Shown here piece after piece: positions 54,598-64,000 of a stretch of 64,000 nucleotides of DNA. The translations under genes were made by a program, and so were the position numbers. The stretch's first letter is position 1; each line of letters begins with the position of its first letter. The notes under the pieces are model-generated. The model made no database searches. It worked only from the letters and a program-made list of their open reading frames with translations, and was not told the origin of the DNA. The stretch lies in the NCBI RefSeq assembly GCF_057098645.1, contig NZ_CM169472.1; one strand, given 5' to 3'.

Positions 54598-55788
54598 ATG
54601 ATGAAAACTGTTAATGAGCTGATTAAGGATATCAATTCGCTGACCTCTCACCTTCACGAGAAAGATTTTTTGTTAACGTGGGAACAGACGCCAGATGAAC
54701 TGAAACAAGTACTGGACGTTGCCGCAGCATTAAAAGCACTGCGTGCTGAAAACATCTCAACCAAAGTCTTTAATAGTGGATTAGGTATTTCCGTATTCCG
54801 CGACAACTCCACCCGTACCCGCTTCTCTTATGCTTCCGCGCTTAACCTGCTCGGCCTTGCACAGCAAGATCTCGATGAAGGCAAATCACAAATCGCTCAC
54901 GGCGAAACCGTGCGTGAAACCGCCAATATGATCTCCTTCTGCGCCGACGCTATTGGTATTCGCGACGATATGTATCTGGGCGCAGGCAACGCCTATATGC
55001 GTGAAGTTGGCGCTGCACTTGATGACGGTTACAAGCAGGGTGTGCTGCCGCAACGTCCGGCTTTAGTGAACCTGCAATGCGATATTGATCACCCGACTCA
55101 GTCAATGGCTGACCTGGCATGGTTACGTGAACACTTTGGTTCACTGGAAAACCTGAAAGGTAAAAAAATCGCCATGACCTGGGCCTACTCCCCAAGCTAT
55201 GGCAAACCGCTCTCTGTACCACAAGGCATCATCGGTCTGATGACTCGCTTCGGTATGGATGTCACCCTGGCCCATCCGGAAGGCTACGACCTGATCCCGG
55301 ATGTGGTTGAAGTGGCGAAAAACAATGCTAAAGCCTCCGGTGGTAGCTTCCGTCAGGTCACCAGCATGGAAGAAGCCTTCAAAGACGCAGACATCGTTTA
55401 TCCGAAGTCATGGGCACCTTACAAAGTGATGGAAGAGCGTACTGAATTGCTGCGTGCGAACGACCACGAAGGCTTAAAAGCACTGGAAAAACAGTGTCTG
55501 GCACAGAACGCGCAACACAAAGACTGGCATTGTACTGAAGAGATGATGGAACTGACCCGTGATGGCGAAGCCCTGTACATGCACTGCCTGCCAGCTGATA
55601 TCAGCGGCGTATCCTGTAAAGAAGGTGAAGTGACTGAAGGCGTATTCGAAAAATACCGTATCGCTACCTACAAAGAAGCCAGCTGGAAGCCTTATATCAT
55701 CGCCGCGATGATCCTGTCCCGTAAATACGCCAAACCAGGTGCACTGCTCGAGCAACTGCTGAAAGAAGCGCAAGAACGCGTGAAATAA
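54598..55788 (+). CDS. ygeW: Carbamoyltransferase-like protein YgeW (ATCase/OTCase fold), 396 aa
   Basis: Track ORF 396 aa with carbamoyl-phosphate-binding STRTR motif. Confidence 0.85.
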   Translation: MMKTVNELIKDINSLTSHLHEKDFLLTWEQTPDELKQVLDVAAALKALRAENISTKVFNSGLGISVFRDNSTRTRFSYASALNLLGLAQQDLDEGKSQIAHGETVRETANMISFCADAIGIRDDMYLGAGNAYMREVGAALDDGYKQGVLPQRPALVNLQCDIDHPTQSMADLAWLREHFGSLENLKGKKIAMTWAYSPSYGKPLSVPQGIIGLMTRFGMDVTLAHPEGYDLIPDVVEVAKNNAKASGGSFRQVTSMEEAFKDADIVYPKSWAPYKVMEERTELLRANDHEGLKALEKQCLAQNAQHKDWHCTEEMMELTRDGEALYMHCLPADISGVSCKEGEVTEGVFEKYRIATYKEASWKPYIIAAMILSRKYAKPGALLEQLLKEAQERVK

Positions 55789-55845
55789 CCCCTCGGGCCG
55801 ATCAGCTGGTCGGCCCTCTATTTCCAGAGGCCAAAAGGATAGGAT

Positions 55846-57042
55846 ATGTCCGTTTTCTCATTGAAGATTGATATCGCCGATAACAAATTTTTCAACGGCG
55901 AAACATCACCGCTCTTTTCGCAAAGCCAGGCCAAACTGGCGCGCCAGTTCCACCAGAAAATAGCTGGTTATCGCCCAACACCGCTTTGTGCGCTGGACGA
56001 TCTCGCAAACCTTTTTGGTGTGAAGAAAATTCTCGTCAAAGACGAATCAAAACGATTCGGTCTGAACGCCTTCAAAATGCTCGGCGGTGCGTACGCCATC
56101 GCTCAATTATTGTGCGAAAAATATCATCTTGATATCGAAACGCTGTCATTTGAGCACCTGAAAAATGCCATCGGCGAAAAAATGACCTTTGCGACCACCA
56201 CCGACGGCAACCACGGGCGCGGTGTGGCATGGGCCGCTCAGCAACTCGGTCAGAACGCGGTGATTTACATGCCGAAAGGTTCTGCTCAGGAACGCGTTGA
56301 CGCCATTCTGAATCTGGGTGCCGAGTGCATCGTCACCGATATGAACTATGACGATACCGTTCGCCTGACCATGCAACACGCGCAGCAGCACGGCTGGGAA
56401 GTGGTACAGGACACGGCATGGGAAGGATACACCAAAATCCCAACCTGGATCATGCAAGGCTACGCAACCCTGGCAGATGAAGCCGTCGAGCAAATGCGTG
56501 AAATGGGCGTAACCCCGACGCACGTTCTGCTGCAAGCCGGTGTCGGAGCAATGGCCGGTGGTGTGCTGGGTTATCTGGTCGACGTCTATAGCCCGCAAAA
56601 TCTGCACAGCATTATTGTTGAACCTGACAAAGCTGACTGTATTTATCGCTCCGGCGTCAAAGGCGACATCGTCAACGTTGGCGGTGATATGGCCACCATC
56701 ATGGCGGGCCTGGCCTGTGGCGAACCTAACCCGCTGGGCTGGGAAATCCTACGTAACTGCGCTACCCAATTCATCTCCTGCCAGGACAGCGTTGCCGCAT
56801 TAGGTATGCGCGTGCTGGGTAATCCGTACGGCAACGATCCGCGCATTATCTCCGGTGAATCCGGCGCTGTCGGTTTGGGCGTTCTCGCGGCGGTTCATTA
56901 TCACCCGCAACGTCAAAGCCTGATGGAAAAACTGGCGCTGAACAAAGATGCCGTGGTGCTGGTTATCAGCACCGAAGGCGACACCGACGTGAAGCACTAC
57001 CGCGAAGTTGTCTGGGAAGGCAAACACGCTGTAGCACCTTAA
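55846..57042 (+). CDS. dpaL: Diaminopropionate ammonia-lyase (PLP-dependent), 398 aa
   Basis: Track ORF 398 aa; synteny ygeW-ygeX(dpaL)-ygeY. Confidence 0.85.
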   Translation: MSVFSLKIDIADNKFFNGETSPLFSQSQAKLARQFHQKIAGYRPTPLCALDDLANLFGVKKILVKDESKRFGLNAFKMLGGAYAIAQLLCEKYHLDIETLSFEHLKNAIGEKMTFATTTDGNHGRGVAWAAQQLGQNAVIYMPKGSAQERVDAILNLGAECIVTDMNYDDTVRLTMQHAQQHGWEVVQDTAWEGYTKIPTWIMQGYATLADEAVEQMREMGVTPTHVLLQAGVGAMAGGVLGYLVDVYSPQNLHSIIVEPDKADCIYRSGVKGDIVNVGGDMATIMAGLACGEPNPLGWEILRNCATQFISCQDSVAALGMRVLGNPYGNDPRIISGESGAVGLGVLAAVHYHPQRQSLMEKLALNKDAVVLVISTEGDTDVKHYREVVWEGKHAVAP

Positions 57043-57099
57043 TCACCCTATTGGAACTGCTCCCTGCAAAACGGGGAGTAAAAAATCTGGAGAAAAATA

Positions 57100-62575: not shown

Positions 62576-62622
62576 ACCAACCTCAATGGATATCCTTTCA
62601 GTAACCCGGAATACCCGGGCCG

Positions 62623-63393
62623 CTAATTCACAAATCTGCGCGCGATTGCAGGATGTTCTTGTATATCGCCCAGCCAGATTGCCTCTACGTCGTGTTGTTG
62701 CAGCGGTTGAAGGAGCTCGCTTTGCGCAATCGCATTCTCACATTGAGAAAAACGGTTAATGAACCAGACTCGCCGACAACCTTGCGGTACGTTTTTAAAC
62801 GCCCCCTGAGGGTGGCGAACCAGCGCAACGAGATCGCTCAGTTGCAAGGTTGCATCAGTTGTTAACCCGGTAATATCAGCAAACTGCGACCAGCGATGGA
62901 CATTTTCTGTGTTCACTTTCGCGCCCAAAATATGTCCTCCCATCACAGCAATCACGCAGCAACTGCTTTTGGGTATGCAAGGTTCGTGCTCATCAGGCGC
63001 TTTTAACGGCATTCCACGCGAGCCATCTGCTTCAATGAGAATTACGTCACACTCTGGTCGTTGCACCAGTGCATCAATCGCTTCTGGCGTAAATCCCTGC
63101 ACTTTTCCCTGGTTCGCTTTCCAGCTGTGAAAACAAAATGAAATGGGGGATGTAAGAGACGCATGAGGAAGCATGGCGGGATCACGACAGAAAACCACGG
63201 GCCAGTGAGACGTTGGCATAAACATATGTGTTGTCGTCGTGATTAACACACGCCTGCCGCTAGCCTGGAGCAGTTCTGCTAGCCAAAAAAGCAAGCTGGT
63301 TTTCCCCCCAGCACCAACAACAGAAATCACAGTGGGACGTTTCTGCGCACCTAAATCAATGAATAATGCCGATGGGTCAACTATACTTTTCAC
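62623..63393 (-). CDS. yqeC: YqeC, selenium-dependent molybdenum hydroxylase-associated protein, 256 aa
   Basis: Track ORF 256 aa with P-loop-like GAGGKT; synteny. Confidence 0.8.
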   Translation of the reverse strand: MKSIVDPSALFIDLGAQKRPTVISVVGAGGKTSLLFWLAELLQASGRRVLITTTTHMFMPTSHWPVVFCRDPAMLPHASLTSPISFCFHSWKANQGKVQGFTPEAIDALVQRPECDVILIEADGSRGMPLKAPDEHEPCIPKSSCCVIAVMGGHILGAKVNTENVHRWSQFADITGLTTDATLQLSDLVALVRHPQGAFKNVPQGCRRVWFINRFSQCENAIAQSELLQPLQQHDVEAIWLGDIQEHPAIARRFVN

Positions 63394-63495
63394 GAGTCTT
63401 TATGACCTCTCTGGGATAAATTACCCCCAACTTAATCCATCAGGAAGTAACGCAATTATCAGGCGTTATTAGCCCCTATAAATAATGGAACCACT

Positions 63496-64000
63496 ATGTC
63501 AGCCATCGACTGTATAATTACCGCTGCCGGATTATCATCAAGAATGGGGCAATGGAAAATGATGTTACCCTGGCAACAGGGAACAATTCTTGATACAAGT
63601 ATCAAAAATGCGTTGCAGTTTTGTAGCCGAATTATTTTAGTCACCGGCTATCGTGGTAATGAACTGCACGAACGTTATGCGAACCAGAGCAATATCACTA
63701 TTATTCACAACCCAGATTATGCCCAGGGTTTACTAACATCAGTCAAGGCCGCAGTACCCGCAGTGCAAACAGAACATTGTTTTCTCACCCACGGTGACAT
63801 GCCAACCCTCACCATCGATATTTTCAGAAAAATCTGGTCGTTACGAAATGATGGCGCAATCCTGCCACTCCATAATGGCATCCCTGGCCATCCGATTTTA
63901 GTGTCAAAACCATGCCTGATGCAGGCAATCCAGCGACCCAATGTCACCAATATGCGTCAGGCACTCCTTATGGGAGATCATTATTTCGTCGAAATAGAAA
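63496..64000 (+). CDS. mocA: Molybdenum cofactor cytidylyltransferase MocA (YgfJ), N-terminal ~168 codons; continues beyond window
   Basis: Frame open from ATG 63496 to window end; MSAIDCIITAAGLSSRMGQWKMMLPW nucleotidyltransferase motif. Confidence 0.8.
   Translation, partial: MSAIDCIITAAGLSSRMGQWKMMLPWQQGTILDTSIKNALQFCSRIILVTGYRGNELHERYANQSNITIIHNPDYAQGLLTSVKAAVPAVQTEHCFLTHGDMPTLTIDIFRKIWSLRNDGAILPLHNGIPGHPILVSKPCLMQAIQRPNVTNMRQALLMGDHYFVEIE

Follow-up and report, generated by a model that had tools for sequence, protein, structure and literature searches.

What does the gene cluster that runs from ygeW to mocA in Escherichia coli degrade, and how firmly can a substrate be assigned to it? 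The stretch of DNA analyzed here (the window; 64,000 nucleotides of contig NZ_CM169472.1 from RefSeq assembly GCF_057098645.1) ends in a 9.4 kb region, positions 54598-64000, that carries ygeW, dpaL (ygeX), ygeY, hyuA, and yqeA in one orientation, yqeB and yqeC in the other, and most of mocA. An initial annotation had placed this cluster downstream of the xanthine dehydrogenase genes xdhABC and the sigma-54 activator gene ygeV, guessed that a cyclic ureide or an N-carbamoyl amino acid feeds a carbamate route that yields ATP, and left the cluster with an incompletely defined function and a native substrate that was not established. We conclude with high confidence that the region encodes the lower half of the E. 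coli pathway that degrades uric acid anaerobically and reductively, through 2,8-dioxopurine ("yanthine"), accompanied by genes for the maturation of molybdenum enzymes. The sources for this pathway are Liu et al., 2023 (Cell), Liu et al., 2025 (bioRxiv 10.1101/2025.04.24.650524; Nat Microbiol 10:2291), and Li et al., 2025 (Life Metab, PMC12507026).

A urate-derived substrate for the cluster

Gene calls were taken from the open reading frames (ORFs) of the window and from the RefSeq annotation of an E. coli O145:H28 genome that is 100% identical over positions 54598-64000, as are several genomes of this serotype. In a profile search, all eight products exceed the curated NCBIfam equivalog cut-offs (Table 1), including that of mocA, which passes TIGR03310 although the window covers residues 1-168 only, and none of the eight ORFs from ygeW to mocA contains an internal stop. 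The five co-oriented genes from ygeW to yqeA are separated by spacers of 47-57 nt and are an annotated operon-like row rather than a chance arrangement; an Rfam scan of positions 54000-64000 returned no RNA element. Pairwise comparison of the five proteins of this row with those of E. coli K-12 MG1655, the strain from which Liu et al. cloned the pathway genes, found YgeW (396/396 residues), YgeX (398/398), YgeY (403/403), and YqeA (310/310) to be identical and HyuA to match at 458 of 461 residues. With four of the proteins unchanged from K-12 and 3 substitutions among the 461 residues of HyuA, the published assignments transfer directly to the proteins of the window. Gene order, spacers, and sigma-54 promoters are likewise as in K-12, and nothing of substance separates this locus from the 2,8-dioxopurine pathway of E. 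coli K-12 and Clostridium sporogenes. The arrangement is widespread in the species: 5,154 of 5,426 complete E. coli genomes carry at least 80% of the region at a single location. Structures of YgeW (PDB 3q98) and YgeX (PDB 4d9g) are available; YgeY carries the Pfam domains M20 and M20_dimer, and no solved structure was found among its close relatives (E<=1e-30).

The enzymatic steps of the pathway, its ATP yield, and the phenotypes of E. coli mutants are matters of published experiment. The whole route from urate to pyruvate was reconstituted in vitro with E. coli enzymes by two independent studies in 2025 (Liu et al.; Li et al.), and an independent commentary accepts it as established (Percudani, PMC12990295). 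In the upper half, XdhD-YgfM reduces urate to 2,8-dioxopurine, which YgfK dearomatizes before SsnA opens the pyrimidine ring to give ureidomethyl-hydantoin (Liu et al.; Li et al.). In the lower half, HyuA opens the remaining hydantoin ring to 2,3-diureidopropanoate, YgeW phosphorolyzes one of the two ureido groups to carbamoyl phosphate, YgeY hydrolyzes the other to leave 2,3-diaminopropanoate (DAP), and the pyridoxal phosphate-dependent YgeX converts DAP to pyruvate and two NH3 in the last step (Liu et al.; Li et al.). ATP was made only when YgeW, YqeA, Mg-ADP, and 2,3-diureidopropanoate were all present (Liu et al., 2025). In MG1655, deletions of ygeW, ygeX, ygeY, and hyuA each abolish the conversion of labeled urate to acetate (Liu et al., 2023), the E. 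coli mutants accumulate the same intermediates as the corresponding C. sporogenes mutants (Liu et al.), and a strain lacking xdhA does not consume xanthine (Li et al., 2025).

Applied to the window, this chemistry gives a predicted sequence of events. XdhABC would supply urate from xanthine and hypoxanthine; once the upper pathway has acted, HyuA would open the hydantoin ring to 2,3-diureidopropanoate, and YgeW would use phosphate to take off one ureido group as carbamoyl phosphate. YqeA would then move the phosphate to ADP, yielding one ATP by substrate-level phosphorylation and leaving carbamate, while YgeY would hydrolyze the second ureido group and YgeX (DpaL) would break the resulting 2,3-diaminopropanoate down to pyruvate and ammonia. 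MocA would make the cytidine dinucleotide form (MCD) of the molybdenum cofactor for the Xdh-type enzymes. The initial annotation thus fared well in part: ORFs, annotation, and family matches all agree with its placement of the eight genes and with the position of the cluster downstream of xdhABC and ygeV, and the published reconstitution agrees with its guess of an ATP-yielding carbamate route. It regarded the native substrate as not established, and in this it has been overtaken: the studies of 2023 and 2025 define urate-derived substrates, and a literature describing the complete pathway and its substrate now exists.

The shared chemistry of hydantoinases raises the question of whether the cluster might instead be a general hydantoin and N-carbamoyl-amino-acid system of the hyu type used in the industrial "hydantoinase process," whose substrates would be 5-substituted hydantoins (phenylhydantoin, for example) and whose link to purines would be a coincidence. 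RefSeq names HyuA a "D-phenylhydantoinase," its sequence scores as a D-hydantoinase/dihydropyrimidinase, and its nearest solved structures are D-hydantoinases; the D-amino-acid production systems, too, pair a D-hydantoinase-type enzyme with one that then cleaves the N-carbamoyl group. However, neither a hydantoin racemase nor a nitrilase- or AmaB-type carbamoylase appears in the ORF list of the window or the annotation of the locus, YgeY falls in a family of its own (TIGR03526), one of the two decarbamoylations is phosphorolytic, and the cluster sits among xdh genes and genes for purine and urate transporters. The native substrate is derived from urate, as HyuA cleaves urate-derived ureidomethyl-hydantoin and hyuA mutants are blocked in urate catabolism, and we regard a general hydantoinase cluster as very unlikely. 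HyuA also passes the "dihydropyrimidinase" equivalog TIGR02033, and a reductive pyrimidine module could be imagined in which HyuA acts on dihydrouracil or dihydrothymine, YgeY or YgeW cleaves the ureido acid, and the carbamate kinase follows. Reductive pyrimidine degradation by PydA, PydB, and PydC runs through the same order of reactions (ring reduction, opening by a cyclic amidohydrolase of which HyuA is a PydB-type example, and ureido-acid cleavage), and Li et al. emphasize the mechanistic parallel to PydA and PydB and report that HyuA cleaves 5-ureido-dihydrouracil as well, again to 2,3-diureidopropanoate. Against this stand the lack of any place for 2,3-diaminopropanoate and its dedicated lyase YgeX in pyrimidine breakdown, the passage of labeled urate carbon through these very enzymes (Liu et al.), and the description of the pathway as specific to urate (Percudani). 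Unlike the pyrimidine route, the locus handles a two-ring purine skeleton with two ureido groups, one of them conserved as ATP, and its end product is pyruvate rather than beta-alanine, and a pyrimidine function is extremely improbable.

Conservation of the cluster bears on a further possibility, that two unrelated functions merely adjoin here, with YgeX detoxifying exogenous 2,3-diaminopropionate and YgeW and YqeA forming a module like that of the arginine deiminase pathway or a transcarbamylase for oxamate or another substrate. That YgeX acts on DAP had been known well before a pathway was described, and YgeW resembles ornithine and N-acetylornithine carbamoyltransferases. The arginine deiminase pathway (ArcB and ArcC) shares the energy logic of the locus, phosphorolysis of a ureido group followed by ATP formation by carbamate kinase, as Liu et al. 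point out, and the pairing of a transferase of the ornithine carbamoyltransferase (OTCase) fold with a bona fide carbamate kinase (YqeA, arcC equivalog TIGR00746) is found here. Yet the locus has neither an arginine deiminase nor an antiporter, its substrate is 2,3-diureidopropanoate rather than citrulline, and YgeW scores 133 bits against a cut-off of 281 in the OTCase model TIGR00658 (ArcB/ArgF), belonging to a knotted family of its own. E. coli does not grow on DAP, the DAP that builds up in ygeX mutants comes from labeled urate (Liu et al.), and urate co-induces the pathway genes (Liu et al., 2023). Gene order, moreover, is conserved across orders and is reported across phyla. Annotated YgeW homologs of 85-92% identity occur across Enterobacterales and in Aeromonas, with the Pfam domains OTCace_N and OTCace in the orthologs. 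Two context look-ups, in Aeromonas and Morganella (counted here as two other gammaproteobacterial orders), returned in Aeromonas a sigma-54 activator, YgeW, a PALP lyase, an M20 hydrolase, an amidohydrolase, and an AA-kinase, then XdhC-like, YqeC, and NTP-transferase genes and a YgfK-like gene, and in Morganella xdhABC, a sigma-54 activator, and the same five genes; the distribution of the cluster reaches Bacillota, Actinomycetota, and other phyla (Liu et al., 2025; Li et al., 2025). A chance neighborhood of two functions is accordingly a highly improbable account. Isotope tracing, mutant phenotypes, and conserved context contradict all three alternatives, and we allot them only a slight probability even when they are taken together. 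Anaerobic purine degradation is also known as the clostridial "xanthinase" fermentation (the Rabinowitz pathway; Tong et al., 2023), but that route shares neither genes nor intermediates with the present one, and Liu et al. detected none of its intermediates (imidazole derivatives and formiminoglycine).

Several points weigh against the assignment of the cluster to urate degradation or against parts of it. The genes of the upper pathway (ygfK, ssnA, ygfM, xdhD, and uacT) lie past the end of the window, which stops inside mocA, and their presence in the exact strain is judged from identical genomes. In the identical O145 genome, mocA is followed by ygfK, ssnA, ygfM, and xdhD and then by xanQ, guaD, ghxQ, ygfS/T, and uacT; since they stand directly after mocA in a genome that matches the whole region, the source strain very likely has the upper-pathway genes as well. 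The HyuA assayed by Li et al. was the C. difficile ortholog, while Liu et al. used the E. coli enzyme. Activity of the putative YgeV regulon was seen under ethanol stress in baeR and cpxR mutants, and not with urate, in the study of independently modulated gene sets (iModulons) that proposed it. A strong terminator-like hairpin lies between ygeY and hyuA, and the five genes may not form one transcript. The role of YqeB, YqeC, and selenium for the E. coli enzymes would draw on clostridial data, and yqeC has no phenotype in C. difficile. Finally, the two primary groups disagree on the step catalyzed by YgeW.

The YgeW step and the selenium-associated proteins

According to Liu et al., YgeW takes the 3-ureido group of 2,3-diureidopropanoate and produces 3-amino-2-ureidopropanoate, whereas Li et al. 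have it take the 2-ureido group and produce albizziin; Percudani lists the regiochemistry as unresolved. In profile scores and sequence comparison, the nearest characterized relatives of YgeW are the knotted N-acetylornithine carbamoyltransferases (AOTCases) and the OTCases, with aspartate carbamoyltransferases far weaker, and common ancestry with AOTCase and the related SOTCase has been described in the literature. The analogy with these relatives would favor the scheme of Liu et al., in which an N-alpha-acylated substrate would be attacked at its side-chain (3-) ureido group. Two results of Li et al. run counter to the analogy: their product co-eluted with commercial albizziin, and YgeY and YgeX together turn albizziin into pyruvate. 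We attempted to decide the regiochemistry from sequence and reached no decision, as the analogy and the albizziin data conflict. It may be that each of the two mono-ureido isomers genuinely occurs in the pathway, with YgeW and YgeY able to act on either ureido group; such a relaxed choice of group would reconcile the two schemes.

The proteins encoded on the opposite strand connect the locus to selenium. Both YqeB and YqeC pass the equivalog models for markers of the selenium-dependent molybdenum hydroxylase maturation trait (YqeB, YqeC, and SelD; Haft and Self, 2008), and as in that trait their genes adjoin xdh-type genes and mocA; selD is located outside the window. YqeB consists of an XdhC-like N-terminal half and a YqeB-specific C-terminal half (Pfam XdhC_CoxI and XdhC_C) and is likely both a marker and a maturation factor of selenium-dependent molybdenum hydroxylases, and YqeC, which matches Pfam YqeC, is the second marker of the selenium-cofactor trait. 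C. difficile lacking yqeB no longer grows on xanthine and urate, selD is needed for the pathway enzymes of C. sporogenes, and selenium dependence has been demonstrated in these two species only. Extended to E. coli, these data suggest that YqeC and YqeB (the latter made from the sigma-54 promoter within yqeC) would be accessory proteins tied to the labile selenium ligand of the hydroxylases. A more specific proposal, which we put forward tentatively and consider somewhat doubtful, is that in E. coli YqeB and YqeC equip the molybdenum cofactor of XdhD, perhaps along with that of XdhABC, with this ligand, making urate breakdown selenium-dependent, and that the supply of YqeB is set separately by the nitrogen-responsive promoter in yqeC. 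If true, cofactor maturation would be coupled to the utilization of purines for nitrogen.

Promoters and transcript units

Binding of sigma-54 at the promoters of both ygeW and yqeB, and the loss of YqeB when the intragenic promoter is mutated, are established by published experiment. The elements upstream of xdhA and ygeW and inside yqeC each match without a mismatch a site mapped by chromatin immunoprecipitation sequencing (ChIP-seq; Bonocora 2015), and genomic SELEX (gSELEX) independently placed an RpoN site in the spacer between ygeV and ygeW, which is 475 nt long. The arrangement combines a -24 GG/-12 GC element 5' of ygeW with the adjacent gene for an enhancer-binding protein, YgeV, whose domains are a PAS-like segment, a sigma-54 AAA+ module (Sigma54_activat), and HTH_8 (Pfam). 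The element 5' of ygeW is kept in Aeromonas and Morganella, and that inside yqeC is kept in Aeromonas yqeC (positions 19598-19613 of the Aeromonas locus, minus strand). Generic scans were uninformative: a sigma-54 pattern with at most two mismatches gave 50 matches where shuffled sequence gave 43.6, which is not an enrichment, and a consensus scan gave 11 sigma-70-like sites against 10.6 expected. We therefore claim only exact matches to published ChIP-seq sites and no sigma-70 promoter.

The ygeW promoter is presumably activated by YgeV. The putative YgeV regulon groups xdhABC with ygeWXY (iModulon study), and ygeV is involved in urate degradation according to Iwadate and Kato, 2019, as cited by Liu et al., 2023. 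Li et al. (2025) describe a native Crp-binding site in the ygeV-ygeW spacer and glucose repression of the pathway, and a CRP-like palindrome in this spacer, read from sequence, could be that site. In the model we favor, transcription would start from the sigma-54 promoter 90 nt 5' of ygeW, presumably with activation by YgeV, and would be under catabolite control. Mutation of site IS34 in yqeC abolished sigma-54 binding and left YqeB protein undetectable, and the transcript from this promoter was induced by nitrogen limitation (Bonocora 2015). This induction, unexplained in 2015, plausibly fits the release of ammonia from purines, because the locus is now known to release four ammonia per urate. 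The description of the cluster as incompletely defined now holds only for the order of ureido removal, the biochemistry of YqeB and YqeC, and the signal of YgeV.

Candidate hairpins divide the row. The one 3' of ygeY, at the junction with hyuA, is more convincing as a terminator than the one 3' of ygeW, it fits the wording "ygeWXY operon" of the iModulon study, and a hairpin is found at the same junction in Aeromonas (positions 13912-13934 of the Aeromonas locus). Together, the hairpins within the ygeW-yqeA row suggest that expression is controlled below the level of the operon or that ygeWXY and hyuA-yqeA are separate units. In the convergent spacer between yqeA and yqeB, a perfect 26-nt GC hairpin (GGCCGGGTGGGTAATACCATCCGGCC) is present twice, on either side of two palindromes resembling repetitive extragenic palindromes (REPs). 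These hairpins are likely the terminators of both transcription units, and it looks as if a bidirectional terminator had been duplicated around an insertion of REPs or of a bacterial interspersed mosaic element (BIME).

Table 1. Coordinates in the window of the genes, promoter elements, and hairpins of the locus.
Feature	Position	Strand	Evidence or remark
xdhABC, xanthine dehydrogenase	48642-52304	+	ORFs and RefSeq annotation of the identical genome; upstream of 54598-64000
ygeV, sigma-54 enhancer-binding activator	52344-54122	-	Divergent from ygeW; Pfam domains
ygeW	54598-55788	+	NCBIfam NF005538, 825 bits (cut-off 453); PGAP start 54601
dpaL/ygeX	55846-57042	+	TIGR03528 (DAP ammonia-lyase), 651 bits (cut-off 532)
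ygeY	57100-58311	+	TIGR03526, 722 bits (cut-off 322); M20 metallohydrolase
hyuA	58364-59749	+	TIGR02033 (D-hydantoinase/dihydropyrimidinase), 672 bits (cut-off 393)
yqeA/arcC	59797-60729	+	TIGR00746 (carbamate kinase), 386 bits (cut-off 358)
yqeB	60950-62575	-	TIGR03309, 417 bits (cut-off 220)
yqeC	62623-63393	-	TIGR03172, 241 bits (cut-off 73)
mocA	63496-64000	+	TIGR03310, 189.8 bits (cut-off 186.45); 168 of 192 codons, rest past the window end
Sigma-54 -24/-12 element upstream of xdhA, CTGGCGTAAATCTTGCC	48570-48586	+	No mismatch to the xdhA ChIP-seq site of Bonocora 2015
CRP-like palindrome in the ygeV-ygeW spacer, TGTGATCAACCCCACACA	54433-54450	+	Read from sequence
Sigma-54 promoter of ygeW, CTGGCACACTTATTGTT	54491-54507	+	About 90 nt 5' of the start codon; identical to site OS30 of Bonocora 2015
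Sigma-54 promoter inside yqeC, driving yqeB, TGAGCACGAACCTTGCA	62976-62992	-	About 400 nt 5' of the yqeB start; identical to site IS34 of Bonocora 2015
GC-rich hairpin in the ygeW-ygeX spacer, weak T tail	55795-55816	+	Consensus scan
Intrinsic-terminator-like hairpin between ygeY and hyuA, CCCTCCGG-TTCG-CCGGAGGG then TTTTT	58329-58348	+	Consensus scan and spacer sequence
Convergent yqeA/yqeB spacer	60736-60941	.	Two 26-nt GC hairpins (60736-60761 and 60916-60941) around REP-like palindromes

The surrounding window and the place of the locus

Elsewhere in the window, two copies of IS2 (1,332 nt each, 100% identical, and inverted; positions 36451-37782 and 44890-46221), whose InsD is identical to K-12 insD4 at 301 of 301 residues, bracket 7.1 kb of ETT2, a degenerate type III secretion island. 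A GH15 glycoside-hydrolase gene is interrupted by the right-hand copy, with one half at 44139-44927 and the other at 46219-47127, and the IS2 pair could mediate an inversion or act as a composite element. The adjacent 24 kb (30000-54000) has no full-length match among the 5,426 complete E. coli genomes, the best covering 94% at 97.8% identity, and the source strain therefore has its own IS2-remodeled arrangement of ETT2. Within the island, the secretin gene sctC (41098-42801, minus strand) is an uninterrupted ORF of 567 codons; in the O145 reference, which is otherwise nearly identical, it is annotated as a pseudogene that contains an internal stop. Rfam matches mark tandem OmrA/OmrB small RNAs at 22928-23015 and 23130-23211 and a tRNA-Gly at 47322-47392, all on the minus strand.

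Database names for the urate locus trail its biochemistry. HyuA is listed as a "D-phenylhydantoinase/dihydropyrimidinase" and YgeY as a "selenium metabolism-linked hydrolase," and beyond the window YgfK is still a "putative selenate reductase subunit" and SsnA a "putative aminohydrolase," despite their published substrates in the urate pathway. The biochemistry of the locus is already known, having been worked out between 2023 and 2025, and the copy in the window is ordinary and intact and adds nothing new to it. The practical value of the locus lies in its reminder of how far annotation can lag behind published chemistry. The pathway itself is the means by which gut bacteria dispose of the urate that humans excrete into the intestine, roughly one-third of the total, and it has been engineered into E. 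coli Nissle with the aim of lowering serum urate in mice (published in the work of 2023-2025 in Cell, Nat Microbiol, and Life Metab); to the bacterium, it gives ATP and pyruvate.

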